Positions 40,012-58,025 of a DNA stretch of 64,000 nucleotides are shown here, piece after piece. Position numbers and translations under genes: made by a program. Position 1 is the first letter of the stretch; every line of letters begins with the position of its first letter. Origin of the DNA: an uncultured Candidatus Rokubacteria bacterium. Its GTDB lineage: Bacteria > Methylomirabilota > Methylomirabilia > Rokubacteriales > DASRDR01. The notes beneath the pieces are model-generated. The model saw only the letters and a list, made by a program, of their open reading frames with translations. It was not told the origin of the DNA and did not search any database. The stretch lies in NCBI GenBank assembly GCA_963805625.1, contig CAWDVE010000013.1, positions 512,001 to 576,000 of the forward strand, read 5' to 3'.

Positions 40012-40962
40012 ATGACCCCGAGGGGACTCGAGCTGAACGTCATGATCGAGGGCCAGGAGGGTCTCACCTGGGAGCGCTGGCAGCGCCTGGCGCGGGCCGC
40101 GGAGGACGGCGGATTCGGCGGGCTCTACCGCTCCGACCACCTCACCGGGCTCTTCGGGGACTCGACGCGACCCTCGCTCGAGACGTGGGCGTCGCTGCCG
40201 TGGCTCGCGACCGCGACGAAGCGGATCCGCTTCGGCCCGATCGTCTCCCCCCTGACGTTCTACCACCCCGCGCTCCTGGCCAAGCGCGCCGCCGCCATCG
40301 ACCAGCTGGCCGGCGGCCGCTTCGACCTCGGCATCGGAGCGGGCTGGAACGAGATGGAGCACCGCATGTTCGGGATTCCGTTCCCGCCGCTTCGCGAGCG
40401 CATGGACCGCCTGGAGTCCGGGGCGCGGGCGATCCGCGCGCTCTGGCACGGGACGCCGGTGACGCTCGATCAGCCCTACTCTCCGCTCGTCGAGGCGCAG
40501 AGCTTCCCCCTCCCGACGGGCGTGCGGCTAATCGTCGGTGGGCGCGGCGAGCGGCGGACGATGCGCGTCGCCGCCGAGCTCGCCGACGAGTGGAACGCGA
40601 CGCGCGTGACCTTCGACGAGTATCCGCGGAAGCTCGAGGTTCTGGCCGGCCACTGCCGCGCCGTCGGACGGGATCCGGCGACGATCCAGCTGTCGCTGAT
40701 GGCCCCGATCGTGGTGGGCCGCACGCGGGCCGAGGTCCTAGCCCGGCTGGCCCGGGGCCGCGAGTGGTTCCCGCGCGTCCCGGAGCACGAGGCGGAGTGG
40801 CGGGCCCAGAGCTTCCTCTTCGGCTCGGTGGACGAGGTGGTGCGTGACCTCCGTCGCTGGCAGGAGCTCGGGATCCGGCGCGTCATGCTCCAGTGCCTCG
40901 ACATCGACGACCTCGCCGCGCTCGAGCTCGTCGCCCGCGAGGTGATCCCCGCCGTCGTTTGA
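40012..40962 (+). CDS. LLM-class (luciferase-like), probably F420-dependent oxidoreductase
   Basis: AGGAGG RBS; EGQEG, YRSDH, GRFDLGIGAGWNEMEH, VGGRGERRT, ADEWN. Confidence 0.88.
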   Translation: MTPRGLELNVMIEGQEGLTWERWQRLARAAEDGGFGGLYRSDHLTGLFGDSTRPSLETWASLPWLATATKRIRFGPIVSPLTFYHPALLAKRAAAIDQLAGGRFDLGIGAGWNEMEHRMFGIPFPPLRERMDRLESGARAIRALWHGTPVTLDQPYSPLVEAQSFPLPTGVRLIVGGRGERRTMRVAAELADEWNATRVTFDEYPRKLEVLAGHCRAVGRDPATIQLSLMAPIVVGRTRAEVLARLARGREWFPRVPEHEAEWRAQSFLFGSVDEVVRDLRRWQELGIRRVMLQCLDIDDLAALELVAREVIPAVV

Positions 40963-40981
40963 GCCGGAGTGCCTGAGTCCG

Positions 40982-41896
40982 ATGACCCCTGACCGTCCGC
41001 CAGCGTCAGCGCCGGCCCCAGCGTCGGCCAAGATCTCACGCGCGGGCCGCCTGCGCGCTCAGCTCGCCCGCGGGCGCCTCACGGTGCCGAGCTGCTACGA
41101 CGCGCTCGGCTTCCGCATGATCGCCCGGGCCCGCTTCCCGGCGGCCTTCCTCAGCGGGTTCTCGGTGTCCGCGGCCCGGCTCGGGGTTCCGGACGCCGGC
41201 CTCCTGTCCTACGGCGAGATGGCGGCGCAGGCCCGCGACGTGGCGGCGTCGGCGTCGATTCCCCTGATCGTCGATGGCGACACGGGCTTCGGCAGCGCGC
41301 AGAACGTGCAGCGCACGGTCCGAGGCTTGGCCGCGGCCGGCGCCGCGTGTCTCATGCTGGAGGACCAGGAAAGCCCGAAGCGGGACTTCGGAGCGCCCGG
41401 CGCGGTGGCTCCGCGAGCTGACGCCCTTCGCCGGGTGAAGGCGGCCGTCCAGGCTCGCGAGGCCGGCGCCGAGATCCTGATCATCGGTCGCACCGACGCC
41501 CGCAACGCGGCCGGGCGAGCCAGCGGGCTGGACGAGGCGCTGTGGCGCGCCGCCGCGTTCGCGGACCTCGGCGCCGATCTCGTGTTCGTCACCGGGCCGC
41601 ACGACGCAACGGAGCTCGGGCGCGTCCGCGGCGCCGCCCGGGTGCCACAGATCGTTCAGGTGGACGAACCGGGTCGGACATGGCTCGGGCCGGCCCAAGT
41701 CCACGAGCTCGGCTTCGAGGTCGCGCTGTACGGGATCTCGCTCGTGCTCGCGGCCGCCGCCGCGTTTCGAGACGCGCTGGCCGCGATGGCCGCCGGCCGG
41801 CCGCTGCCGGACGATCGGGCCGTCACGTCCGGGGAGATCGGCGACATCGTCGGGGTAGCCGACTACCTCGCCGTCGAGCGCGACCTGGAGAGCTGA
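40982..41896 (+). CDS. Isocitrate lyase/PEP mutase superfamily protein
   Basis: YDAL, SGFSVSA..LGVPDAG, VDGDTGFG, LEDQ, GRTDA, GADLVF. Confidence 0.88.
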   Translation: MTPDRPPASAPAPASAKISRAGRLRAQLARGRLTVPSCYDALGFRMIARARFPAAFLSGFSVSAARLGVPDAGLLSYGEMAAQARDVAASASIPLIVDGDTGFGSAQNVQRTVRGLAAAGAACLMLEDQESPKRDFGAPGAVAPRADALRRVKAAVQAREAGAEILIIGRTDARNAAGRASGLDEALWRAAAFADLGADLVFVTGPHDATELGRVRGAARVPQIVQVDEPGRTWLGPAQVHELGFEVALYGISLVLAAAAAFRDALAAMAAGRPLPDDRAVTSGEIGDIVGVADYLAVERDLES

Positions 41897-44853: not shown

Positions 44854-45726
44854 TCAGTTCGGCCGGCGGTGCGACTGGACGTGGCGGTACATGCCGGCCA
44901 CGTTGAGCGGGAACGTCTCCTTGTAGCCTCCCCACCCCTCGTATTTCGGCATCGTCACGGCCTGGACCACCTCTTGCTCGCTCTTCCCTTCCCGCGCGAG
45001 CCGGAGCACCTCGTCGCGGAGCTCCTCCATGTACACGCGGAAGGCGCGCACGTCGTCCTTCGTACCGACCGGGCCGTGGCCAGGGACGAGCACGTCGAAA
45101 TCCATCGCCTCGACGCGCCGGAGCGACTCGATCCACTCCTCGATGTAGGCGTCCGGCCAGTCCCGGAACCCGATCGCCTTCACCGGGATGAAGTCGACGG
45201 CGAACAGGAGGCGCTCCCTCGGGAAGCGCATCACGACGGAGTTGTCCGAGTGGTTCCGGCCCACGTACAGGAGCTCGACCATCGTGCCCCCCAGCTCGAT
45301 CGTCATGCGGTCGGAGAACGTGGCCTGGGGCACGGCCGTCGGCCGCTTCTCGGCGACGATCGTCCGCCGGGCATTCTCGTGGGCGATGATCCGGGCGGTG
45401 TCCGCGAAGACCTCGCCGCCCGAAATGTGATCGGCGTGGTCGTGGCTGTAGACCACGACTCGGATCGGCTGGGAGAAGCTCTTGGCGATCTCGGCCTTGA
45501 GCCAGCGGGCGGCATCGGCGTTGATGGGGTCGGTCGCGATGACACCCTCGGGCGTCACGGCGAAGACCGAGTAGTGGAAGTTGTTTCGGAAGCGGTACAC
45601 CGGCCCCACGAGCGGGGTGATCTCCCGGACCGGAGCCGTGGCCTGAGCGGATACCAGCTGGGCCCGGAGGGGCAGGACTGCCAGGCCGAGGCCCCCGGCG
45701 AGGACAGCGCGGCGCGTGATCGTCAT
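44854..45726 (-). CDS. Tat-exported MBL-fold metallo-hydrolase
   Basis: AGAGGAGG RBS; ITRRAVL twin-arginine signal; SHDHADH, NHSD, VD, VPGHG. Confidence 0.88.
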   Translation of the reverse strand: MTITRRAVLAGGLGLAVLPLRAQLVSAQATAPVREITPLVGPVYRFRNNFHYSVFAVTPEGVIATDPINADAARWLKAEIAKSFSQPIRVVVYSHDHADHISGGEVFADTARIIAHENARRTIVAEKRPTAVPQATFSDRMTIELGGTMVELLYVGRNHSDNSVVMRFPRERLLFAVDFIPVKAIGFRDWPDAYIEEWIESLRRVEAMDFDVLVPGHGPVGTKDDVRAFRVYMEELRDEVLRLAREGKSEQEVVQAVTMPKYEGWGGYKETFPLNVAGMYRHVQSHRRPN

Positions 45727-45883
45727 GAACGCCTCCTCTTTGTATGCGAAGGGTTAGAGCCGCGGGTGCCCGACAGCCCCGGGCATCACCCGCCGGTCGA
45801 CACTCATTCAACTGGCCGGGGCCCCCGGAAGTTCAAGGCTCCGCCGTACCCGGGGGGCCGCCCCGCGCCCGGCCCGGCAGGCG

Positions 45884-46684
45884 TCAGTGCATCAGGAAGC
45901 CACCGTCGACGGTGACCGCTTGCCCCGTGATGTACCCGCCCGCCGCGGACGCCAGGAAGACGATGACGCGGGCGACGTCGTCGGGGTCGGCCAGCCGGCC
46001 GAGAGGCACGGTGGCAGCGCGCTGCTTCATGAACTCGCCGGCGGCGAGACCCTGCTGGCGAACGCCGATCAGGTCGTCGAGCCGCCAGTTGAAGTCGGTG
46101 TCGACGATCCCCGGGCAGACCGCGTTGACGCGGACGCCGTGGCGGGCGAGGGCGCGCGCCGCCTGCTGCGTGAGCGACAGGACCGCCGTCTTGCTGGCCG
46201 CGTACGGGGGCGAGAGGCTCGCCGAGCCGCGGCCGGCGATGGACGAGACGTTCACGATGGCGCCCGCGCCCTGGCGGATCATCACCGGCGCAGCCGCCTG
46301 CATGCAGAAGAAGAGGCCGCGCGCGTTGACGGCGAAGGTCTCGTCCCAGTCGCGCTCGCTCACCTGGCCGAACGGGGTCGGCCGGATCACCCCCGCGTTG
46401 TTCACGAGGACGTCGAGCCGCCCCAGGCCCTCGGTGACGCGCGCGACCAGGCGCTCGATCTCCGGCACCGCCGAGACATCGGCCGGAAGCGCGAGGGCCT
46501 TCCGTCCGAGCGCGCGCACCTCGCCGGCCACCCGCTCGGCGGCGTCGGCGCGGAGGTCGTTGACGGCGAGGTCGGCTCCCGCGCGAGCCAGGGCGAGCGC
46601 CGTCGCCCGGCCGATCCCCTGCCCCGCCCCCGTGACGAGGGCGACCTGGCCCGCGAGCGACTCGCCCGCCGCCCTCTCAGGCAC
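45884..46684 (-). CDS. SDR family oxidoreductase
   Basis: TGAGQGIG, NNAG, YAASK, NAVCPG, ITGQ..TVDGG; overlaps the aroG stop. Confidence 0.92.
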   Translation of the reverse strand: MPERAAGESLAGQVALVTGAGQGIGRATALALARAGADLAVNDLRADAAERVAGEVRALGRKALALPADVSAVPEIERLVARVTEGLGRLDVLVNNAGVIRPTPFGQVSERDWDETFAVNARGLFFCMQAAAPVMIRQGAGAIVNVSSIAGRGSASLSPPYAASKTAVLSLTQQAARALARHGVRVNAVCPGIVDTDFNWRLDDLIGVRQQGLAAGEFMKQRAATVPLGRLADPDDVARVIVFLASAAGGYITGQAVTVDGGFLMH

Positions 46685-47747
46685 GGATCTTCTCCCGGCG
46701 CGCGCGCACGGCCTTCGCGAGGTCGTCCAGCACCGGCAGCGTGTCGTCCCAGGCGAGGCAGGCGTCGGTGACGCTCTGGCCGTACACGAGGGGCTCGCCG
46801 GGGCGGACGTCCTGTCGCCCCCCCACCAGGTGACTCTCGATCATCACCCCGAAAACGTGGCGGAGACCGTCGGCGATCTGCCCGGCGAGGTCGCGCGCCA
46901 CGGCGGGCTGCCGCGTATGGTCCTTGCCGCTGTTCCCGTGCGAGCAGTCCACCATGATCCGGGGAGGCAGCCCGGCCCGGGTGAGCACCTTCGCCGTCTG
47001 CTCGACGTCCTCGGCGTGGTAGTTCGGGCGCCGGTGGCCTCCGCGAAGGATCACGTGGCAGGCATCGTTGCCGCGCGTGACCACGATGGCTGCCAGCCCC
47101 TGCTTCGTCACGGAGAGGAACTGGTGCGGGTGCATCGCCGCCCGGATCGCGTCGACCGCGATCTGGACGTTGCCGTCCGTGCCGTTCTTGAACCCCACCG
47201 GCATCGAGAGGCCCGACGCGAGCTCGCGGTGGACCTGGCTCTCGGTGGTACGGGCGCCGATGGCCCCCCACGACACCAGGTCGGCGATGAACTGCGGAGT
47301 GATGGTGTCCAGGAACTCGCATCCCGCGGGGAGACCCATGTTCGCGAGATCGAGGAGAAGGCCCCGCGCCAGGCCCAGCCCGTCGTTGATCGCGAAGCTC
47401 CCGTCGAGCCTGGGGTCGTTGATGAGCCCCTTCCACCCGACGGTCGTCCGCGGCTTCTCGAAGTAGACGCGCATGACGAGCAGGAGGTCGGCGGCGAGCC
47501 GATCGGCGGCGCCCCGGAGGCGCGCCGCGTATTCGCGCGCGGCCTCGACGTCGTGGATCGAGCAGGGCCCCACGACGACCAGGAGCCGGTCGTCCTCGTC
47601 ACGGAGGACGCGGTTGATCGCCTCGCGCCCCTCGGCGATCGTGTTGGACGCCTCCTCCGTGATCGCGAATTGCTCCATCAGGATGGCAGGCGGGATCAGC
47701 GGCCGGAGCCGCTCGATCCGGAGGTCGTCGGTCGGACGCAGCATCAC
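46677..47747 (-). CDS. aroG: 3-deoxy-7-phosphoheptulonate (DAHP) synthase, class I-alpha
   Basis: GPCSIHD, RVYFEKPRTTVGWKGLIND, IGARTTESQVHRE, GFKNGT, DCSHGNS, GQSVTDAC. Confidence 0.95.
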   Translation of the reverse strand: MMLRPTDDLRIERLRPLIPPAILMEQFAITEEASNTIAEGREAINRVLRDEDDRLLVVVGPCSIHDVEAAREYAARLRGAADRLAADLLLVMRVYFEKPRTTVGWKGLINDPRLDGSFAINDGLGLARGLLLDLANMGLPAGCEFLDTITPQFIADLVSWGAIGARTTESQVHRELASGLSMPVGFKNGTDGNVQIAVDAIRAAMHPHQFLSVTKQGLAAIVVTRGNDACHVILRGGHRRPNYHAEDVEQTAKVLTRAGLPPRIMVDCSHGNSGKDHTRQPAVARDLAGQIADGLRHVFGVMIESHLVGGRQDVRPGEPLVYGQSVTDACLAWDDTLPVLDDLAKAVRARREKIRA

Positions 47748-48019: not shown

Positions 48020-48793
48020 ATGACGCAATCGACGCCACCTCATCCCGTCCTCGACCGGTACTACGGCAGTGCGGCGGATCGGCGATCGTTCGTCGCCGCG
48101 CTGTTCGACGGCGCCGCTCGCCACTACGACCGTGTCGGGCGAACTCTCGACCTGGGCTCGGGACCGTGGTATCGACGCCAGGCCCTCCGGCGGGCCGGTC
48201 TGCGGCCCGACATGAAGCTCCTGGACGTCGCGACCGGCACGGGTCTCCTGGCCCGCGGAGCCGCGCGCATCCTCGGCAACCCGGGTGGGGTGGTCGGCGT
48301 CGATCCGAGCGCCGGCATGCTGCGGGAGGCACGGAAGGCGCTCACCGGGCCCCTCGTGCGGGGGTGGGCCGAGGCGCTGCCGTTCAGGAGCGACCACTTC
48401 GACATGCTCAGCATGAGCTTCGCCCTGCGTCACGTGGCGGAGCTCGAGGTGGCCTTCGGAGAGTATCTACGTGTCCTGAAGCCGGGGGGTCGCCTCCTGC
48501 TCCTCGAGGTGTCTCGTCCCCGCTCAGCCGTGACCCGCTGGGTGATGAGGGTCCACCTGCAGCGGGTCCTGCCGTGGCTCATGCAGATCAGCACGGGCAG
48601 CGAGCCCGCTCAGCTGCTCATGAAGTACTACTGGGACACGATCGACCGGTGCGTCCCGCCGGAGACGATCGTGGACGTCCTGCGCCGGAGCGGCTTCGTC
48701 GGCGTCGAGCGTCGGGTGTTCTTCGGCTTCCTCAGCGAGTACGTGGCGTCCAAGCCGGGCGGCGGGCGACCCGTCCGCGCCGTCAGCGGATAG
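48020..48793 (+). CDS. Class I SAM-dependent methyltransferase (UbiE/MenG-like)
   Basis: LFDGAARHYD, LLDVATGTG, AEALPF, FALRHV, RVLKPGG. Confidence 0.88.
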   Translation: MTQSTPPHPVLDRYYGSAADRRSFVAALFDGAARHYDRVGRTLDLGSGPWYRRQALRRAGLRPDMKLLDVATGTGLLARGAARILGNPGGVVGVDPSAGMLREARKALTGPLVRGWAEALPFRSDHFDMLSMSFALRHVAELEVAFGEYLRVLKPGGRLLLLEVSRPRSAVTRWVMRVHLQRVLPWLMQISTGSEPAQLLMKYYWDTIDRCVPPETIVDVLRRSGFVGVERRVFFGFLSEYVASKPGGGRPVRAVSG

Positions 48794-50120
48794 CCAGCGT
48801 GGAGGGATCGATCCCCCCCAGCCCGTAGCGGCTCAGCAGCCGCAGCAGGCCCCGGCTGTACCGGGAGGTCGTGGCGGCCCCGCTCGCCTGCAAGCCGATG
48901 TGGCGCTCGATGTGATGCTGCGCCCTCTCCCGGACGAACCTCGATCCGTGCCCCATGAACGCTCGCCCGGACCGCATGAGGGCCGCGAGCCGCCCATCGT
49001 AGAGGTAGGCGACCAGGTCCTGCCAGGCGGCCAGCATCGCCGTCTGGACCTCTGCGTAGGAGGCAAGCGCCGAGTCGAGCTCGGCCGGTGACGGGGGCTT
49101 GCGCCGCCGAATCACTGGACCGAGACCTTCGGCCACGAGCTCGGCCGAGCGCAAGGCGAGGAAGACCCCGGGCGAGAGCATGGGATCCACGAAGCCGAAG
49201 GCGTCTCCGACCATCACCCAGCCCGGGCCGTGGCCACGCCGGGAGATCAGCTGATAGTTGGCGTAGGTGGCAACGCCCGTGACCCGTCGCCCCTCCCCGA
49301 CCACAGAGCGGAGCCAGGAATCCCGGTCGACGGCCTGATCGAGCCGCTCCTCCGGGGTGCGTCCGAGCTTCGCGGCGTCCTCCTGGCCCAGCACGATCCC
49401 CACCGACAGCCGATCCTCGAGCGGAATGCACCAGCTCCAGCCCGCCGGGCCGCGCGCGATGAGCACCTGCCCCGGCGCGTCGTCCCAGCGGAAGCTCTCG
49501 AAGTGGGCGAAGTGCGCCACGTCCTTTCGCGGCCCGAGCTGGGCACCGATTCCCAGCGCACGGGCCCCGTGACGGGCTCGGCCCGTCGCGTCGACGATCA
49601 GGTCTGGCTGACGGCCGCCCAGAACGGGCGCCGCCGCCAGGGTCTCGGGCGCCAGGGCCAGTTCCGCTCCGGTCCCGTCGGCGAGCTTGCGCTCGAGCCG
49701 GGCCCGGCCGACCACGTGGTGGACGCCGGCCGCGAGGGCCCGGTCGCGCAGGGCCTCGTCGAAGCGCGGGCGCGGGATGTTGTAGGCGTACGGGAACACG
49801 GACGGCGCGAAGCGGGCGAACGTGAAGCTGAATCGGTCCGTCGGCGACCAGATGAAGGAGACGCCCGGCTTCACGCGGCCGAAGGCCGCCATCTCTTCCT
49901 CGACGCCGAGACGCTGGAAGATCGGCACGACGGCCGGCACGAGCGATTCCCCGACCAGGAGCTCCGGGCGTCGGTCCTCGTCGAACAGGGTGACCTCGGC
50001 CCCCTCGCGGGCCAGCAGCATCGACAGGGCTGATCCCGACGGTCCGGCGCCGATCACCGCGACCCGGAGGCGACCAGGGCCGTCGGGTGACCTTCGATGC
50101 GTGTCGCCCAGCCCACGCAT
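48783..50120 (-). CDS. FAD-dependent halogenase-like oxidoreductase
   Basis: GAGPSG (FAD), VGESL, K in RVKPG, R..FD, DATGR, GWSWCIP (WxWxIP), GDAFGFVDPMLSPGV. Confidence 0.85.
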   Translation of the reverse strand: MRGLGDTHRRSPDGPGRLRVAVIGAGPSGSALSMLLAREGAEVTLFDEDRRPELLVGESLVPAVVPIFQRLGVEEEMAAFGRVKPGVSFIWSPTDRFSFTFARFAPSVFPYAYNIPRPRFDEALRDRALAAGVHHVVGRARLERKLADGTGAELALAPETLAAAPVLGGRQPDLIVDATGRARHGARALGIGAQLGPRKDVAHFAHFESFRWDDAPGQVLIARGPAGWSWCIPLEDRLSVGIVLGQEDAAKLGRTPEERLDQAVDRDSWLRSVVGEGRRVTGVATYANYQLISRRGHGPGWVMVGDAFGFVDPMLSPGVFLALRSAELVAEGLGPVIRRRKPPSPAELDSALASYAEVQTAMLAAWQDLVAYLYDGRLAALMRSGRAFMGHGSRFVRERAQHHIERHIGLQASGAATTSRYSRGLLRLLSRYGLGGIDPSTLAIR

Positions 50121-50124
50121 GGGG

Positions 50125-51606
50125 TTACGACCGCTCCGCGGGAACGCGCGCCTCGGTCGGAGGCGGGCGCCTGAGGATCTTCCCGCCGGGCGTCTTCGGG
50201 ATGGCCGCCACGACCGTGAACTCGACGGGCACCTTGTGCGAGGAGAGCGCGCGAGCGCAGTGTGCCCTGAGAGCGTCCAGGTCGCAGGCGGCGAAGCCCA
50301 GCACGATCTCGGCCCGAGGGACTTCACCCAGGCGCGCGTGCGGGTGGCCGAACACCCGGGATTCCCTGACGCCCGGGAACGCGTTGATGCAGGCCTCGAC
50401 CTCCTCCGGAAAGAACTTCAGTCCGCCGACGAAGATGACGGCCTTCTTGCGCCCCTCCAGATAGAGTGCCCCGGACCCATCCACCCGGCCGACGTCGCCC
50501 GTGAGGAACCAGCCGTCCCGCGTGACCTGCTCGCGAAGCTGCCACGGGGCGTAGTACGCGGAGAAGAGCCCACCGCCCCGGAGCGCGATCTCCCCGACAG
50601 CGCCGGCGGCCAGCGTCGCCCCACTCTCGCCGAGTACGACGACCTCGTAGCCCGGGACCGCACGACCCACCGAGGTGGCGGGCAGCCCGTCGCCGGGGAC
50701 GTTGATGCAGGGCAGGCCCGCCTCGATGATCCCGTAAGCCTGAGCGACCGGGACGCCGTGGACGGACTCGAAGCGGTCCATCACCGCCGGCGTGATCGGG
50801 GCGCTGGTCGACAGGGCCAGCCGCAGGCTCGTCAGGGCTTCGCTCGCCGGCAGGTTGGCCAGGCGCTCGAAGTGAAGCGGCGAGGCGTAGAAGACGGTGG
50901 CCCGGAGTCCCCGGATCGCGTCGATCACGGTTCCGGGCAAGGTGTCCGGACACAGGAAGACGTGAGTCCCGGCCCGGACGTAGGCCACGATGGTCACCGC
51001 GAAATGGTAGGCCAGCGGCAGCACCCAGAGAACACGATCGTTCTCGGTGAAGCGAAGCACGCGGTCGGCCGCCTCGACCCGGGCAAGGGTGGCCTCGTGG
51101 GAGAGCACGACGCCTTTGGAGCGGGCCGTGGTCCCGGAGGTGAAGCGGATGAAGGCGGGGTTCACGCTCGAGAGCCCCACCGGCCCCTCGGCCTCGCGAT
51201 CGAGCCACTGGAACGTGAATCCCTGGCACGGCCCGCCGGCGAGGAGCGCGCGCTCGTCGGAGCTCGGCAGCGAGTCCGCCCTGGGCCAGGCGAGACAGCC
51301 GTTCACGTCGACCTGGCTCAGGAGCTCGGCCGTCTCGGTCGGCGTGAGGTGCTCGGCCACGGGCACCAGCGAAGCGCCGGTACCCAGGACACCGAAGGCC
51401 GCGGCCAGATACGCGAGGCCGTTCGGTGCGAGGAGCCCGATCCGCTGTCCCGGCTCGACGCCCCGGGCGCGGAGAAACACGGCGACCCGCTCCCCCTCGC
51501 GGGCCAACTCGCCGTACGTCAGCATCCGGGCGGACCGGACATCGGTCACGGCCGGACGGTGTGGATGCCGCGCGGACGTGGCTCCGAGGAGCTCGTTGAG
51601 ATTCAT
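50125..51606 (-). CDS. Class I adenylate-forming enzyme (acyl-CoA/acyl-ACP ligase)
   Basis: FTSGTTARSKG, YGIIEAG, FLTGDVG, GRKK...GG..FFPEEVE, PKTPGGKILR. Confidence 0.9.
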   Translation of the reverse strand: MNLNELLGATSARHPHRPAVTDVRSARMLTYGELAREGERVAVFLRARGVEPGQRIGLLAPNGLAYLAAAFGVLGTGASLVPVAEHLTPTETAELLSQVDVNGCLAWPRADSLPSSDERALLAGGPCQGFTFQWLDREAEGPVGLSSVNPAFIRFTSGTTARSKGVVLSHEATLARVEAADRVLRFTENDRVLWVLPLAYHFAVTIVAYVRAGTHVFLCPDTLPGTVIDAIRGLRATVFYASPLHFERLANLPASEALTSLRLALSTSAPITPAVMDRFESVHGVPVAQAYGIIEAGLPCINVPGDGLPATSVGRAVPGYEVVVLGESGATLAAGAVGEIALRGGGLFSAYYAPWQLREQVTRDGWFLTGDVGRVDGSGALYLEGRKKAVIFVGGLKFFPEEVEACINAFPGVRESRVFGHPHARLGEVPRAEIVLGFAACDLDALRAHCARALSSHKVPVEFTVVAAIPKTPGGKILRRPPPTEARVPAERS

Positions 51607-51613
51607 CGAGCGC

Positions 51614-52921
51614 TCAGGGCCGCGCGGTCCATTCCATCCCCTCGGCGATTGCCTCGACGATCCGCGTGACCTCGTCCTCGCTCACGACCCCCTCGATCCA
51701 CGAGACGACGAGGTTGTCCTGCCCCGCGCACCGGTTGAAGAACACGCCGATCCCGGGCCGGAGCGGCACCGCCGGCACATGATAGGCGTTCAGGACGCGG
51801 CGATCGAAGCATCGATCCAGAGACGTCGGGAACGCCGTCACGTCGGCACAGTTGAACGAGAAGATTTCGCCGCCCTTCGTCCATGGAAGACTGCGCAGCA
51901 CCCTCGAGAGGGGGCGGTACTTGAGAAACTCCATGCTCACCTCGTTGGCCTCGATCTGACCGTCGCGCACCGCGTCGGCCATCTGGCGGCGCAGGCTCCG
52001 GGCCAGGCTGGACGGGTCGGCGGTGTCGGACGGCCGGAACCGCGCGAAGTGGAAGGCGAGGAGATTCCCGAAGGTCGGTCCCGCCTCCCCCTTCGGGCGG
52101 AGATCCACCGCGATCGGCAGAAGGAACGGGACGTCCGGAAGGCCCCGCCGCTCCCACAGATGCGCCATGGCCCGGCCGACGACGGCCACACGCCAGGAGA
52201 TCTCCCGGCTCGTCGGCCGGTGTCCGTTCCTGTTCGTCCCCCCGAAGGTCACGCGCCGGAAGCGCGCCCCTCTCGAGGCGACCCGTGCGGGGGCCGGTGA
52301 GACCGGGGGAACGGGAGCCAGGGTGCGGATGTACGCCAGGCTCTGGCGGCCGAGCCGCGCACGCTCTCCGAGAGGCCGCTTGTCCGGGGACGGCACGAAG
52401 GCGGGGAGCGCCCCGTTCCACGGCCACTCGCCCTCGAACCGATCGAGGTGGCAGAGGTGCGCGAGGAGGTTCTGAGCGCCTCGCGGGTCCATCAAGGGAT
52501 GGAACCACGTCAGGACCAGGAAGCCCCGCTCCGGCCCGTCGAGGAGCAGCACGCGGAGTGGCGCCTCGCGCGCAGGATCGACCGGCGCGTTGAGCTCCGT
52601 CGTCAGCGCACGCTGGAGATCCTCAGGCGTGGCGACGGCTCGCCGGCTGATCGGCGGGCGGGTCAGCCTCTCGCGCGGACCGGCCGCCCAGTGAAGCTGG
52701 CCCCACGGAAACGGGCGGCGCAGGCGCGCCCCGGGCCACGGGCACGCGTCCAGAAAGCGATCGAAGGCGCGACCGATCCGCTCGAGGTCGACCGGGCCAT
52801 CGCACTCGACCACCAGGAGGGCATTGTTGCTCAGCCCCATGCGGCGGCCGCGCATGTGCATCGCCATCAGGACGAGGTCCGCCCCGCGGAGGGGAAGCCG
52901 ACGACGCAACGCTCGCTTCAT
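51614..52921 (-). CDS. Stand-alone condensation-domain / CoA-dependent acyltransferase-like protein
   Basis: DGPVDLERI..A, PLRVLL, WFHPLMDPRG (HxxxD), PIAVDLR, FGNL. Confidence 0.72.
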   Translation of the reverse strand: MKRALRRRLPLRGADLVLMAMHMRGRRMGLSNNALLVVECDGPVDLERIGRAFDRFLDACPWPGARLRRPFPWGQLHWAAGPRERLTRPPISRRAVATPEDLQRALTTELNAPVDPAREAPLRVLLLDGPERGFLVLTWFHPLMDPRGAQNLLAHLCHLDRFEGEWPWNGALPAFVPSPDKRPLGERARLGRQSLAYIRTLAPVPPVSPAPARVASRGARFRRVTFGGTNRNGHRPTSREISWRVAVVGRAMAHLWERRGLPDVPFLLPIAVDLRPKGEAGPTFGNLLAFHFARFRPSDTADPSSLARSLRRQMADAVRDGQIEANEVSMEFLKYRPLSRVLRSLPWTKGGEIFSFNCADVTAFPTSLDRCFDRRVLNAYHVPAVPLRPGIGVFFNRCAGQDNLVVSWIEGVVSEDEVTRIVEAIAEGMEWTARP

Positions 52922-52974
52922 AGGTCACGTGACGCCGTCGGGCCCGGTTCGGCCCGGATGCGGCGAAGGGGTGG

Positions 52975-53319
52975 CTAAGCCAGGCTCCTCCGGCGGGACA
53001 CGTAGCCCGCCAGGGCACGGAGGGACGAGACGTTCTCCGTCCGGAGATCCGCGTCGGGCATCCAGAACCCGAATTCGGCCTCGACGAAGAGCAGGATCTT
53101 CAGCAGTCCCATGGAGTCCACGCCGGCCGCCTCCAGGTCGTCGTCCGGCTGGATCGGACGGCCGCGGGCCATGATGTGAGCGTTGACGAAAGCAGCCAGG
53201 GCGCGGGCCACGCCGTCCGCGTCGGCGGATGGCCCGGGGGTGGGCGAAGACTCCGTGCGACCCGGATCAGGCTCCGGGTCGCGGAGATGCAGTCCGGCCC
53301 ATGATCCTCCCCTCGGCAC
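52975..53319 (-). CDS. Acyl carrier protein (start uncertain, possibly GTG 53211)
   Basis: DDDLEAAGVDSMGLLKILLFVEAEFG...ENVSSLRALA; phosphopantetheine Ser motif GxDS. Confidence 0.88.
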   Translation of the reverse strand: MPRGGSWAGLHLRDPEPDPGRTESSPTPGPSADADGVARALAAFVNAHIMARGRPIQPDDDLEAAGVDSMGLLKILLFVEAEFGFWMPDADLRTENVSSLRALAGYVSRRRSLA

Positions 53320-54260: not shown

Positions 54261-55670
54261 TCAGTCGAGCGTGACGAGCTCGCGGTAGTCCGGGACGGAC
54301 GCCTCCCAGCCGAGCTCGCGGCGGATACGCCCCGCCAGCGTCTCCGCGGGCCCGAGCTCTCCATGGACCACGAAGACGTGCCGCGGCCGGCGGGCGGCGG
54401 TGCGGAGCCAGCGGAGCAAGCCGTTGGCGTCGGAGTGAGCGGAAAGCCCGTGGATCACCTCCACGTGCGCACGAACGGGGACGTCCTCGCCGAAGATGCG
54501 CACCGTGCGAACGCCGTCCTGGATCAGCCGGCCGCGCGTCCCGGGGGCCTGGAAGCCGACGAGGAGGACCGTGGTCTTCGAATCCGGGAGGCGGCGGCGG
54601 AGGTGGTGCAGGACGCGCCCTCCCGTGACCATGCCGCTCGCGGCGATGATGATCGCGGCGCCGCGGACGTCGTTGATCTTCCGCGACTCTTCCACGGAGC
54701 GGGTCAGCTGGAACCGCGCCGTGTGGAGCGGGCAGGTTCCCGAGATCACGGGCTTGGCCGTGTCCGGATCCAGGTCCTCCGGGTGGGAGCAGTAGAGGCC
54801 CGTCGCCTCGATCGCCATCGGGCTGTCCACGAAGGTCGGCAGCCGGGGAATGCGGCCCGCATCCTCGAGCGCCCGGAGGTGATAGATCAGCTCCTGGGTC
54901 CGGCCGACCGCGAAGGCCGGCACCACGAGCGCGCCGCCCCGGTCTACCGCGGCCCGGACGACGCGCTCGAGCTGGTCGGGAATTGACGTGGGATCGTGGA
55001 GCCGGTCGCCGTAGGTCGACTCGACGAAGATGTAGTCGGCCTCGTCGATCGGCTCCGGATCGAGGAGGATCGGCGCCGCATAGCGGCCGATGTCTCCCGA
55101 GAAGACGAGGCGCCGGGGAACCGCGCCCGCGGCGAACTCGAGGTGAACGGCCGCCGACCCGAGGATGTGCCCGGCCCGCCGGAACGTCCCCTGGAGCCCG
55201 GGGAGCAGCCGGATCGGCTTGTGGTAGTCGATGCCCTTCACGGTCTCGGCGGTCCGGGCGCCCTCCTCCGCGGTGTAGAGCGGCAGGGCGGGTGTGTGCT
55301 TGGACGTCCCCCGCGCGTTGTGGTACGCGGCCTCCTCCTCCTGGAGGTGGCCCGAGTCCGGCAGGAGGACCCGCGCGAGATCCTCGGTCCCTCGAGTCGC
55401 GGTGATCCGGCCTCCGAAGCCGTCCTTGACGAGCCTGGGCAGGTACCCGATGTGGTCGATGTGGGCGTGGGTGAGGGCGACGGCATCGATCCGCGCGGGA
55501 TCGACGGGCAGCTTGTCCCAGTTCCGGAGGCGGAGGTCCTTCAGGCCCTGGTAGAGACCGCAGTCCACCAGGAGCCGCCGGTCGGCCGTCTCGACCAGGA
55601 ACTTCGAGCCGGTAACCGTCCTCGAGGCACCCAGGCACTGGATGGTGGCGATCGGCGCGCGCGTGGGAAT
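54261..55670 (-). CDS. MBL-fold beta-CASP ribonuclease (Ysh1/TTHA0252-like); apparent ATT start
   Basis: LGASRTVTGSKFL, DCGLYQG, THAHIDH, AGHILGS, FSGD, ESTYG, PAFAVGRTQE, SAHSD, VHGE. Confidence 0.9.
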   Translation of the reverse strand: MPTRAPIATIQCLGASRTVTGSKFLVETADRRLLVDCGLYQGLKDLRLRNWDKLPVDPARIDAVALTHAHIDHIGYLPRLVKDGFGGRITATRGTEDLARVLLPDSGHLQEEEAAYHNARGTSKHTPALPLYTAEEGARTAETVKGIDYHKPIRLLPGLQGTFRRAGHILGSAAVHLEFAAGAVPRRLVFSGDIGRYAAPILLDPEPIDEADYIFVESTYGDRLHDPTSIPDQLERVVRAAVDRGGALVVPAFAVGRTQELIYHLRALEDAGRIPRLPTFVDSPMAIEATGLYCSHPEDLDPDTAKPVISGTCPLHTARFQLTRSVEESRKINDVRGAAIIIAASGMVTGGRVLHHLRRRLPDSKTTVLLVGFQAPGTRGRLIQDGVRTVRIFGEDVPVRAHVEVIHGLSAHSDANGLLRWLRTAARRPRHVFVVHGELGPAETLAGRIRRELGWEASVPDYRELVTLD

Positions 55671-56824: not shown

Positions 56825-56873
56825 CCGCAGGGCGTCCGGCCGCGCAGTGTCCCTGAGCGCTTCCGGCGGGACG

Positions 56874-58025
56874 ATGTCGACGTTCGAGCTGCTCCTCGAC
56901 TGCGTCACCGCTCCGCGGCGGGACGAAGCGCGCGCGCGGCTCCGCCGGCGGCTCGGCGGGCCGATCGACTGGGATGCGGTGCTGGACTCCGCGCGCCGGC
57001 ACGGGATCACGCCGCTCGTCTACCTGGAGCTGCGCGCCGCGCCCGACGGTCTCGTGCCGCCCGACGCGCTCGCACGGCTGCAGGCCTTCCACTCCGGGAA
57101 CACGCGCCGCTGCCTCCTCCTCACCGGATGGCTCCGGCGTGCTGTCGACGCTCTCGCGGCCGCGGGCGTCCAGGCGATTCCCTACAAGGGGCCCGTGCTC
57201 GCGGCGCTCGCATATGGGAGCATCGCCAGCCGCCAGGCCGGTGACCTCGACATCCTGATCGATCCCGGGGACCTCGGCACCGCCAAGGAGGCGCTCCACG
57301 CGGAAGGATTCCGGGCGCAGATCCCGCTCGAGGGCTGGCAGGAGCAACAGCTGGTGCGGTCCGCGCACCCCTACGGCCTCGTCCGGGACCATGAGGGCAT
57401 CGTGCTCGAGCTCCACTGGAGCGTCTCTCCGCGGTCCCTCTCGGCCGGTCTGGGCGGGAAGCTCCCGCGCGAGCGGCTCGAGGAGGTGGCGGCGGCGGGC
57501 ACGACCTTTCTCACGCTCCCGGTGGACGTGCTCCTCGTCGCGCTGTGCGTCCATGGCGCCAAGCACGTGTGGGAACGGCTCGGCTGGATCGTGGACGTGG
57601 CGGAGCTGATCCGGAGGCGGCCGGGACTCGACTGGGCCGGGGTGCTTGCCCGCGCCGGCGAGGCAGGTCACCTGCGAGAGCTCCTGCTCGGCTGCCTCCT
57701 GGCGCGGGACCTCCTGGGCACGGATCTGCCCGAGATCCTGTGCCGCCGCCTCGCCGCCGATCCATGGCTCCCGGCGCTCGCGCGCGTGGCTCGCGCCCAG
57801 CTCGCCCTCACGGCTCACGGGCGCCTCGGTATCGCCGAGACGGCGCGGTTCCACCTCGGGGTCCGCGGAACCTGGCGCGACCGCCTCGCCTACTTCCGGT
57901 TCGCGATGATGCCGACCGTGGCCGACTGGACGGCCGTCCCGCTACCGCGGTGGCTCGCGCCCCTCCACTATCCCCTGCGGGCGGCGCGCCTGCTCCGGGG
58001 CGGGGCGTCCCACGGTCACCACTGA
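56874..58025 (+). CDS. Nucleotidyltransferase family protein (NTP_transf_5-like)
   Basis: YKGPVLA..AYG...R.AGDLDILI, LELHW, VHGAKH.W..L.W..D. Confidence 0.82.
   Translation: MSTFELLLDCVTAPRRDEARARLRRRLGGPIDWDAVLDSARRHGITPLVYLELRAAPDGLVPPDALARLQAFHSGNTRRCLLLTGWLRRAVDALAAAGVQAIPYKGPVLAALAYGSIASRQAGDLDILIDPGDLGTAKEALHAEGFRAQIPLEGWQEQQLVRSAHPYGLVRDHEGIVLELHWSVSPRSLSAGLGGKLPRERLEEVAAAGTTFLTLPVDVLLVALCVHGAKHVWERLGWIVDVAELIRRRPGLDWAGVLARAGEAGHLRELLLGCLLARDLLGTDLPEILCRRLAADPWLPALARVARAQLALTAHGRLGIAETARFHLGVRGTWRDRLAYFRFAMMPTVADWTAVPLPRWLAPLHYPLRAARLLRGGASHGHH

Follow-up and report, generated by a model that had tools for sequence, protein, structure and literature searches.

Whether a small set of genes for an acyl carrier protein (ACP), a stand-alone condensation-like protein (CL), an adenylate-forming ligase, a halogenase-type flavin adenine dinucleotide (FAD) enzyme, and a methyltransferase (MT) forms an assembly line of its own or belongs to a pathway of a known kind is the question raised by a stretch of DNA from an uncultured Candidatus Rokubacteria bacterium (GenBank assembly GCA_963805625.1, contig CAWDVE010000013.1, positions 512,001 to 576,000; the whole 64,000-nucleotide stretch is referred to here as the window). 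An earlier interpretation made from the letters alone (the sequence-only reading) had described these genes as a minimal system of unrecognized architecture. According to our best reading, to which we give about an even chance, the cassette is a module for loading, halogenating or methylating, and transferring an acid that feeds an envelope-lipid pathway. The ligase would adenylate an acid, probably an aromatic one, and load it on the dedicated ACP; once loaded, the acid would be decorated by the halogenase-type enzyme and by the UbiE-like methyltransferase; and CL would then move the acyl group onto a hydroxyl or an amine of an acceptor. The most likely acceptor, at about even odds, would be an envelope lipid of the C4-type pathway, made by a type II ketosynthase/chain-length factor (KS/CLF) cluster that this genome carries on contig C4. 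The cassette is a variant of known pigment-lipid chemistry and not a new kind of system.

Five genes were picked out in the window (approximately 71% G+C) by third-position G+C content and Pfam scans. Four of them lie on the minus strand in the order ACP (positions 52975 to 53211, 78 amino acids), CL (51614 to 52921, 435 amino acids), ligase (50125 to 51606, 493 amino acids), and FAD enzyme (48783 to 50120, 445 amino acids). The intergenic gaps are 53, 7, and 4 nucleotides (nt), in keeping with the tight block with gaps of about 4 to 53 nt that had been outlined previously, and the ATG of the FAD enzyme gene (50120) falls 4 nt after the ligase stop as read from the DNA. The fifth gene, for a UbiE/MenG-like S-adenosylmethionine (SAM)-dependent methyltransferase of 257 amino acids (48020 to 48793, plus strand; PF01209 UbiE, E = 1.1e-26), converges on the FAD enzyme gene with an overlap of 11 nt between the 3' ends, again as described. 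The earlier assignments of the remaining genes were upheld by Pfam for the ACP (PF00550, E = 7.6e-7), the ligase (PF00501, E = 3.8e-65; PF13193, E = 4.6e-12), and the FAD enzyme (a Trp_halogenase/FAD_binding_3 protein; PF04820, E = 6e-23), and by fold and profile, without a Pfam family, for CL. No ketosynthase had been seen nearby, and tblastn queries of the genome with KS and CLF sequences likewise gave none in the window (contig C13), the matches being confined to contigs C4, C10, and C19. A terminator and promoter scan revealed nothing exceeding the shuffled expectation. Two RNA-library runs yielded short contigs only, of 90 to 99% likeness, which covered stretches of the MT and ligase genes and the junction of MT with the halogenase gene and do not in themselves show transcription.

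The motifs first noted in the FAD enzyme (GxGxxG, WxWxIP, and a lysine placed as in PltA/CndH-type halogenases) were all recovered, as GAGPSG (residues 24 to 29), GWSWCIP (227 to 233), and Lys84 in RVKPG (codon 49869 to 49871); a further motif, FVDPMLSPG (310 to 318), fits the pattern Fx.Px.Sx.G, which we take to be a halogenase signature. Lys84 has the spacing from GxGxxG (about 50 to 60 residues) expected of the catalytic lysine, and in HMMER alignments it coincided with the lysine of 8zop, CndH (3e1t), and CmlS (3i3l). When 14 homologues of 23 to 93% identity were aligned, including cassette-linked ones from DNA of 40% G+C, the GxGxxG FAD-binding motif was kept across the alignment, and Lys84, W228-x-W230-x-I232-P233, F310-x-D312-P313-x-x-S316-x-G318, and G57-E-S-L-x-P62 were invariant in 14/14. 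The best sequence matches among solved structures were 8zop (E = 9.4e-43), CndH (2e-30), and CmlS (4.9e-29), followed by Bmp2, Mpy16, ChlB4, RadH, and PltA. With the AlphaFold2 model (predicted local distance difference test [pLDDT] score, 82.4), the leading Foldseek matches were FasV (8zop), Bmp2, ChlB4, 3nix, CmlS, PltA, Mpy16, and CndH, and ranks 1 to 45 were all halogenases except 3nix, a Cytophaga hutchinsonii flavoprotein without assigned function. FasV, the best single match (27% identical in the fold alignment), presumably acts on a free polyketide. The PltF/PltL/PltA, Bmp1-4, Mpy16, CndH, and ChlB4 systems share the halogenase fold and signature residues and likewise have a discrete ligase and carrier beside the halogenase; unlike the pyrrole and phenol halogenase systems, the cassette has no dehydrogenase for pyrrole formation. 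A C-terminal extension was common only to the cassette-linked orthologues. By sequence and fold, the FAD enzyme is of the halogenase type; it would putatively halogenate, and do so on a tethered substrate.

A different activity was also considered for this enzyme, namely, oxygenation or reduction by an enzyme of this fold, or chlorination of an activated aliphatic carbon, such as that of a beta-ketoacyl thioester, in place of an aromatic ring. CmlS, with its partner ligase CmlK, has reportedly been proposed to chlorinate an activated aliphatic carbon, and CmlS was among the top matches by both sequence and fold. The best NCBIfam model was the monooxygenase QhpG (E = 1.4e-34), narrowly ahead of CmlS (2.1e-33), with both far under their cut-offs. 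PF04820 also matches non-halogenating control genomes such as that of Escherichia coli, so the Pfam match alone is no proof of a halogenase, and the ligase is as close to fatty-acyl and malonyl-coenzyme A (CoA) synthetases as to aryl ligases. On the other hand, the solved QhpG structure (7ctq) matched at only 6.2e-7, compared to 9.4e-43 for the best halogenase, and both the invariance of the signature residues and the occupation of the first 45 fold ranks by halogenases, 3nix excepted, argue against such an activity, which we regard as quite improbable.

CL, which is single-copy in this genome, was less readily placed. It matched no Pfam family at E ≤0.001 and none at the gathering score, PF00668 included; PapA_C came nearest, under its cut-off (E = 0.0019). 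No NCBIfam family was matched, phmmer against the Protein Data Bank (PDB) gave no match at E ≤10, and tblastn against 72,556 plasmids gave none. Relatives were numerous among 50%-identity cluster representatives (598 at E ≤0.001 and 333 at 1e-10). A profile of 69 relatives matched condensation (C) domains of nonribosomal peptide synthetases (NRPSs) (E = 2e-12) and chain 8s6l (E = 2.6e-12), and 8 of the 69 matched the Pfam Condensation family (PF00668) at E ≤0.01. The AlphaFold2 model (pLDDT, 93.7) has the two-lobed, chloramphenicol-acetyltransferase-like fold of C domains; it gave 293 PDB matches at E ≤0.001 in Foldseek, headed by AzeD (8s6l; E = 1.2e-22, TM score of 0.74, identity of 16%) and continuing with C, Cy, and E domains. 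Fold and profile thus bear out the earlier description of CL as an HxxxD condensation/acyltransferase-like protein. Its motif reads F140-H141-P-L-M-D145-P-R-G148 (H141 codon, 52499 to 52501): compared to HHxxxDG, CL retains the catalytic second His (H141) and D145 but has Phe140 in place of the first His, and its Gly lies further on, at +3 (FHPLMDPRG). Among the 69 relatives, W78, D145, and G148 were invariant and H141 was kept in at least 90%; the first His is retained in many relatives, which have HHxxxDxxG. The stretch GPTFGNLLAF (281 to 290) presumably corresponds to the C5 motif. As modeled, CL is a divergent stand-alone condensation-family enzyme that would form an ester or an amide.

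The nearest structure to CL, that of AzeD from azetidomonamide biosynthesis in Pseudomonas aeruginosa, raises the alternative that CL is no acyl transferase and is instead an AzeD-like dehydratase or other non-condensing catalyst, or that it hands a starter to a ketosynthase or second ACP. AzeD was the best structural and the second-best profile match, and both proteins are stand-alone and without the first His of HHxxxDG. Excerpts of a preprint describe AzeD as a dehydratase on a free substrate, with Pro replacing the first His, and as the protein that founds a stand-alone C clade (C_standalone) whose members mostly have no established function (bioRxiv 10.64898/2026.07.17.738954). However, identity to CL is only 16%, the motif of AzeD is P-H-x-x-x-D-G as opposed to F-H-x-x-x-D-x-x-G in CL, and many members of the CL family keep both histidines. 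Moreover, the substrate of AzeD is a free intermediate of an NRPS pathway; CL, in contrast, adjoins an ACP and a ligase, and an ACP was found beside CL in 51 of the 80 metagenome loci described below.

The open frame of the ACP extends upstream to a GTG at 53319, the end coordinate assigned previously, and the GTG at 53211 is the most ACP-like start. Ser33 in the GVDS motif (codon 53113 to 53115), to which the sequence-only reading had drawn attention, is the predicted phosphopantetheine site, and G-x-D-S was invariant in 15/15 cassette ACPs; the AmcB-type ACP model of NCBIfam matched at E = 8.1e-8, under its cut-off. A predicted complex of the ACP with CL reached an ipSAE of 0.70, compared to 0.00 for the best control, a level attained in 116 of 157 solved complexes and in 2 of 215 mismatched pairs. 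Contacts agreed between runs to at least 80%, partner pLDDT was at least 82, and the predicted interface took in ACP residues 27 to 38, including Ser33. The prediction supports binding without demonstrating it, and because complexes of peptidyl carrier proteins with C domains have already been solved, the result may mirror likeness to known complexes. An interface centered on the Ser33 loop would also set CL apart from AzeD, which uses a free substrate, and we consider it very unlikely that CL lacks transfer activity. The earlier logic of loading, halogenating, and transferring still appears sound, judging by the halogenase-like FAD enzyme, the C-domain fold of CL, and an ACP-CL model that passed its controls.

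Where the acyl group might go was suggested by the genomic context of relatives. On contig C4 of this genome, outside the window (approximately 23.7 to 36.6 kb; locus L101, 2774 to 15596), one strand encodes, in order, an LpxL-like protein, KS, CLF, ACP, KS, CLF, and a GT2 glycosyltransferase; the cluster continues with an FtsX/ATP-binding cassette (ABC) exporter, a CDP-alcohol phosphatidyltransferase, and an HpnL-like protein and ends with a radical SAM protein. Pfam supports the LpxL-like acyltransferase (PF03279), GT2 (PF00535), and FtsX/ABC assignments, and the radical SAM protein passes the cut-off of the hopanoid-associated HpnJ equivalog (756 versus 577.6 bits). In a related genome (G212, locus L102), a KS-CLF-KS-CLF-GT2-halogenase2-FtsX-ABC series, with homologues of the C4 genes, is followed further along the same strand by a radical SAM remnant and then by ACP-CL-ligase-halogenase; MT converges on this set, with an LpxL-like gene and an ACP farther on. 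A second genome (G165, locus L103) shows a similar arrangement, plus a second, opposed copy with a PF12831 gene, and several frameshift-like breaks. The embedding in these two loci is the strongest evidence for the cassette working with a KS/CLF cluster.

The gene set is also familiar from pigment pathways. In excerpts of the published accounts, ApeH attaches 4-hydroxybenzoate to an ACP, and methylation of the head group is due to ApeB (PMC8253772); the arcuflavin cluster contains the halogenase ArcA, the methyltransferase ArcM, the 3-hydroxybenzoate AMP-ligase ArcT, and the ACP ArcV (PMC3949708); and xanthomonadins are brominated and methylated, with a halogenase gene in their clusters (PMC3691225). 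According to the same excerpts, a ligase, an ACP, a halogenase, and a methyltransferase make up a known starter/tailoring set of the xanthomonadin, arcuflavin, and aryl-polyene pathways (PMC3949708, PMC8253772). The aryl-polyene pigments as a whole (ApeH/ApeE/ApeB, ArcT/ArcV/ArcA/ArcM, xanthomonadin, and flexirubin) resemble the cassette in having a ligase, a dedicated ACP, a halogenase, and a methyltransferase, and neither a condensation-family enzyme nor a PF12831 flavoprotein is mentioned in the excerpts (PMC8253772, PMC3949708, PMC3691225, PMC3992019). Clusters of the aryl-polyene type, as far as these excerpts describe them, and the present cassette family are both associated with KS/CLF pairs, an LpxL-like acyltransferase, GT2, and exporters. 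Unlike those clusters, the cassette in the window is detached from KS/CLF, the C4 stretch is without ketoreductase (KR) and dehydratase (DH) domains, and for aromatic-acid supply neither a chorismate lyase nor an aromatic ammonia-lyase gene was found. ApeH, ArcT, and FlxY are likened to the window ligase by role only and not by sequence.

These comparisons do not sustain the claim of an unrecognized, self-standing architecture. In L102 and L103 the same genes occur within a lipid cluster that has KS/CLF, LpxL-like, GT2, and ABC genes, distant CL relatives occur in flexirubin/"ladderane"-type lipid clusters, a counterpart cluster is present on C4, and, according to excerpts of the aryl-polyene literature, the starter/tailoring gene set was already known (PMC3949708, PMC8253772). 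A match to a known aryl-polyene or lipid-modification accessory block, which the sequence-only reading had itself named as contrary to its view, was found in part: the embedding in L102 and L103 is of this kind. The window has no KS/CLF pair.

Support for a connection with lipid pathways was extended by distant relatives. A metagenome scan with an 11-sequence alignment of distant CL relatives as the query gave the 80 loci mentioned above, of 34 to 70% G+C and many of them short. Gene counts by tblastn (E ≤1e-6) gave, in addition to the ACP, a PF12831 flavoprotein in 45 loci, a ligase in 39, a B12-binding radical SAM protein in 37, KS in 12, a halogenase-type enzyme in 8, and a UbiE-like methyltransferase in none; the cassette ligases of other phyla are 33 to 40% identical to that of the window. 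The widespread distant order is ACP-CL-(B12 radical SAM)-PF12831 flavoprotein-ligase. Among the 12 loci of at least 14 kb, the ligase was present in 12, the ACP in 11, the PF12831 flavoprotein in 11, radical SAM in 8, an amine oxidase in 6, KS in 5, and the halogenase in 2, and KS/CLF genes of flexirubin/aryl-polyene-type lipid clusters lay within approximately 7 kb of the cassette in 5 of these 12. Other neighbors in the long loci, as assigned by Pfam and NCBIfam, were KS plus CLF-like proteins, a second ACP, FabA/FabZ-like dehydratases (in L054, L074, and L047), LolA-like and MMPL proteins, GT2-DUF2062, an LpxL-like acyltransferase, a phosphopantetheinyl transferase, and a polysaccharide deacetylase. 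A flexirubin LolB2 equivalog was matched in L074 (112.9 bits; cut-off, 60), and the cassette radical SAM genes matched TIGR04072, "lipid biosynthesis B12-binding/radical SAM" (432.6 bits; cut-off, 360). As far as excerpts of the literature describe them, these gene families are those of flexirubin, aryl-polyene, and xanthomonadin clusters (PMC3992019, PMC8253772, PMC3949708, PMC3691225).

One metagenome contig of 40% G+C (L066, 4132 to 10999) carried the order Hal-x-ACP-CL-PF12831 flavoprotein-ligase. Its halogenase was 40% identical to that of the window in alignment and had the C-terminal extension in common with it. The PheT encoded in L066 shared 76% identity with a Nitrosomonas sp. PheT, and judging by this protein, a cultured genus may carry the cassette.

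Within the phylum, CL and the halogenase were adjacent in 8/8 related genome loci (CL identity, 58 to 90%). The order ACP-CL-(x)-ligase-FAD enzyme was kept in six of the eight, with L003 and L004 having CL-halogenase-methyltransferase only. An extra PF12831 FAD oxidoreductase, absent from the window, lies between CL and the ligase in L006 and L007, with a broken copy in L008. Of the 251 genomes of the phylum, 48 had CL; among the 104 of high quality, the number was 19. With the genome of the window (G000) left out, the carriers belonged to two families (4/20 and 43/159) within a single order, compared to 0/71 in the other eleven families, and in the genus of the window 4 of 14 other genomes had CL. 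Since its distribution in the Rokubacteriales is so patchy, the cassette is accessory and not core. The flanks of L003 to L006 vary and include a luciferase-like monooxygenase, an amidase, a Rieske oxygenase, and an alcohol dehydrogenase. In L008 and L103, the CL, ligase, PF12831, and halogenase genes are broken across several frames, which could be due to cassette decay or to long-read assembly errors.

Several findings count against a lipid-linked module, apart from the breadth of PF04820 and the dehydratase precedent of AzeD given above. When the listed places of CL and of CLF2-like matches were compared by hand in 37 CL-positive genomes, a CLF2-like match lay within 20 kb of CL in only two (G212 and G165); in G242, the two were approximately 975 kb apart on one contig, and in the present genome the cassette (C13) and the KS/CLF cluster (C4) are on different contigs. 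CLF2-like genes are near-universal in the phylum (236 of 251 genomes at E ≤1e-30, FabF-level matches included), and their co-occurrence with CL is therefore of little weight. KS was missing inside approximately 7 kb in 7 of the 12 long metagenome loci, and L066 is flanked by housekeeping genes (pheT, HU, and MerR on one side and PagL-like, mnmE, and yidC on the other). The scanned stretch of the C4 cluster showed no KR or DH domain, and for this reason no polyene product is claimed. As for supply and loading of an aromatic acid, no chorismate lyase (PF04345) was found in this genome; tblastn found no aromatic ammonia-lyase or tyrosine ammonia-lyase, a XanB2-type chorismatase not having been searched for; and the nearest solved relatives of the ligase do not separate aryl from fatty or malonyl substrates.

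These linkage data bear on the main rival explanation, according to which the cassette is a self-contained module that makes a small aryl ester or amide carrying halogen and methyl groups, uses a soluble alcohol or amine as the acceptor, and has no KS/CLF link. Models for such a module are VibE/VibB/VibH and the (S)-3-chloro-5-hydroxy-beta-tyrosine module of C-1027, which reportedly consists of the ligase SgcC1, the carrier SgcC2, the flavin halogenase SgcC3, and the free-standing, ester-forming C enzyme SgcC5. The gene set of the cassette fits this four-part logic of a discrete adenylating enzyme, a carrier, a halogenase for the tethered substrate, and an off-loading stand-alone C enzyme, as the C-1027 module is said to be organized. 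It differs in having no aminomutase and no enediyne context, and CL is only remotely related: the CL-family profile (A1) matched chain 4znm, which we take to be SgcC5, at E = 0.036. The absence of a KS/CLF link to CL in 35 of the 37 genomes compared, the varying flanks of L003 to L006, the isolation of the L066 cassette among housekeeping genes, and the patchy spread in phylum and genus are all as expected of a self-contained module. In contrast, such a module would not account for the same-strand embedding within a KS/CLF cluster in L102 and L103, for the five long loci in which KS is accompanied by genes for lipid export or anchoring (LolA, MMPL, LpxL-like, and GT2), or for the membership of the cassette radical SAM genes in a "lipid biosynthesis" equivalog. 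We consider the self-contained module possible but doubtful, and the preferred reading remains that of a module feeding an envelope-lipid pathway.

The ligase has an AMP-binding core and a C-terminal subdomain, with TSGTTARSKG at residue 156 and GEIALRG at 338, and is, as had been supposed, an adenylate-forming enzyme, of a generic kind. Among solved structures it came closest to fatty-acyl/feruloyl-CoA and malonyl-CoA synthetases (E of approximately 1e-47), with FadD13, oxalyl-CoA synthetase, and 4-coumarate ligases among the others. From the neighboring ACP gene, it is predicted to load the ACP rather than CoA. Halogenases of this type require an electron-rich carbon, which favors an aromatic acid. 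UbiE-type methyltransferases suit aromatic tailoring, a gene of the tyrosine-ammonia-lyase type lies beside the cassette in L047, and the precedents set by ApeH, by ArcT/ArcA/ArcM/ArcV, and by the xanthomonadins point the same way. Therefore, the acid is probably aromatic.

An AroG-type 3-deoxy-D-arabino-heptulosonate-7-phosphate (DAHP) synthase (535 bits) is encoded after the cassette, together with a short-chain dehydrogenase/reductase and a metallo-beta-lactamase-fold protein (44854 to 47747, minus strand); among the related loci, only L001, L002, and L007 also have these genes beside the cassette, and for the DAHP synthase this placement is confined to the genus. The DAHP synthase was considered as a dedicated supply gene and rejected, since it is found beside the cassette only in those three loci and is one of three PF00793 genes; a type II DAHP synthase (PF01474) was not found in the genome.

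The methyltransferase of the window scored no more than 129 bits against the UbiE/MenG models of NCBIfam, all under their cut-offs, and a paralogue of 48% identity is encoded elsewhere on contig C13. The convergence of MT with the halogenase gene recurs in L003, L004, L006, L008, L102, and L103; MT is full-length in 4 of the 8 related genome loci; it is a 43-amino-acid remnant in L001 (5751 to 5879) and was not found in L002, L005, or L007. In the closest relatives (L001 and L002, approximately 90% identity), MT is thus a remnant or gone while the other four genes are intact, which indicates that it is dispensable for upkeep of the cassette.

The 598 clusters of the CL family (50% identity) take in Rokubacteria, Planctomycetota, Lentisphaerota, and a Nitrosomonas-like betaproteobacterium. 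A broader proposal, which is speculative and in our estimate unlikely, is that the family, which has no Pfam entry, is a large stand-alone condensation clade that, together with an ACP and a ligase of its own, ester-links a tailored acid onto KS/CLF envelope lipids and that in Rokubacteria, where the acid would be halogenated and methylated, the products would be halogenated, membrane-anchored lipid pigments of an undescribed kind. The logic and most of the parts are known; as far as our searches reach, the literature holds no description of the CL family, of its fixed partnership with an ACP, a ligase, and often a PF12831 protein, or of any Rokubacteria product. Loading, halogenation, and transfer follow textbook logic, and the value of the cassette lies in its product and in a new enzyme clade rather than in a new principle: a large unannotated branch of the condensation superfamily becomes connected with a carrier protein and a ligase and with gene clusters of the lipid type. 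The cassette also offers a concrete starting point for testing the chemistry of Rokubacteria, to our knowledge an abundant soil phylum with no cultured member. With an orthologous halogenase and a related cassette on a Nitrosomonas-like contig, function could be tested in a cultured genus, provided that a cultured strain carries the cassette. Excerpts of a survey of soil biosynthetic gene clusters (BGCs) credit Rokubacteria with moderate numbers of BGCs and KS sequences (bioRxiv 10.1101/818815).

A second halogenase-family gene of this genome, on contig C24 (46230 to 47348; locus L111, 8096 to 9646), is 41% identical to the "Hal2" gene of L102, which lies between GT2 and FtsX. It was set aside, its neighbors being unrelated (a solute-binding protein, a peptidase, and an enolase-superfamily protein).

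Other genes were observed elsewhere in the window. A luciferase-like monooxygenase (PF00296) followed by a phosphoenolpyruvate-mutase/isocitrate-lyase-family protein (PF13714, E = 8e-42) is encoded at 40012 to 41896 on the plus strand and may represent a phosphonate or methylisocitrate-type pair. A beta-CASP/RMMBL nuclease (54261 to 55568, minus strand) had as its best NCBIfam match the type VII CRISPR Cas14 model, at 341 bits and thus far under the cut-off of 800. An NTP_transf_5 "uncharacterised nucleotidyltransferase" (56847 to 58025, plus strand) has a paralogue of 46% identity on contig C12.

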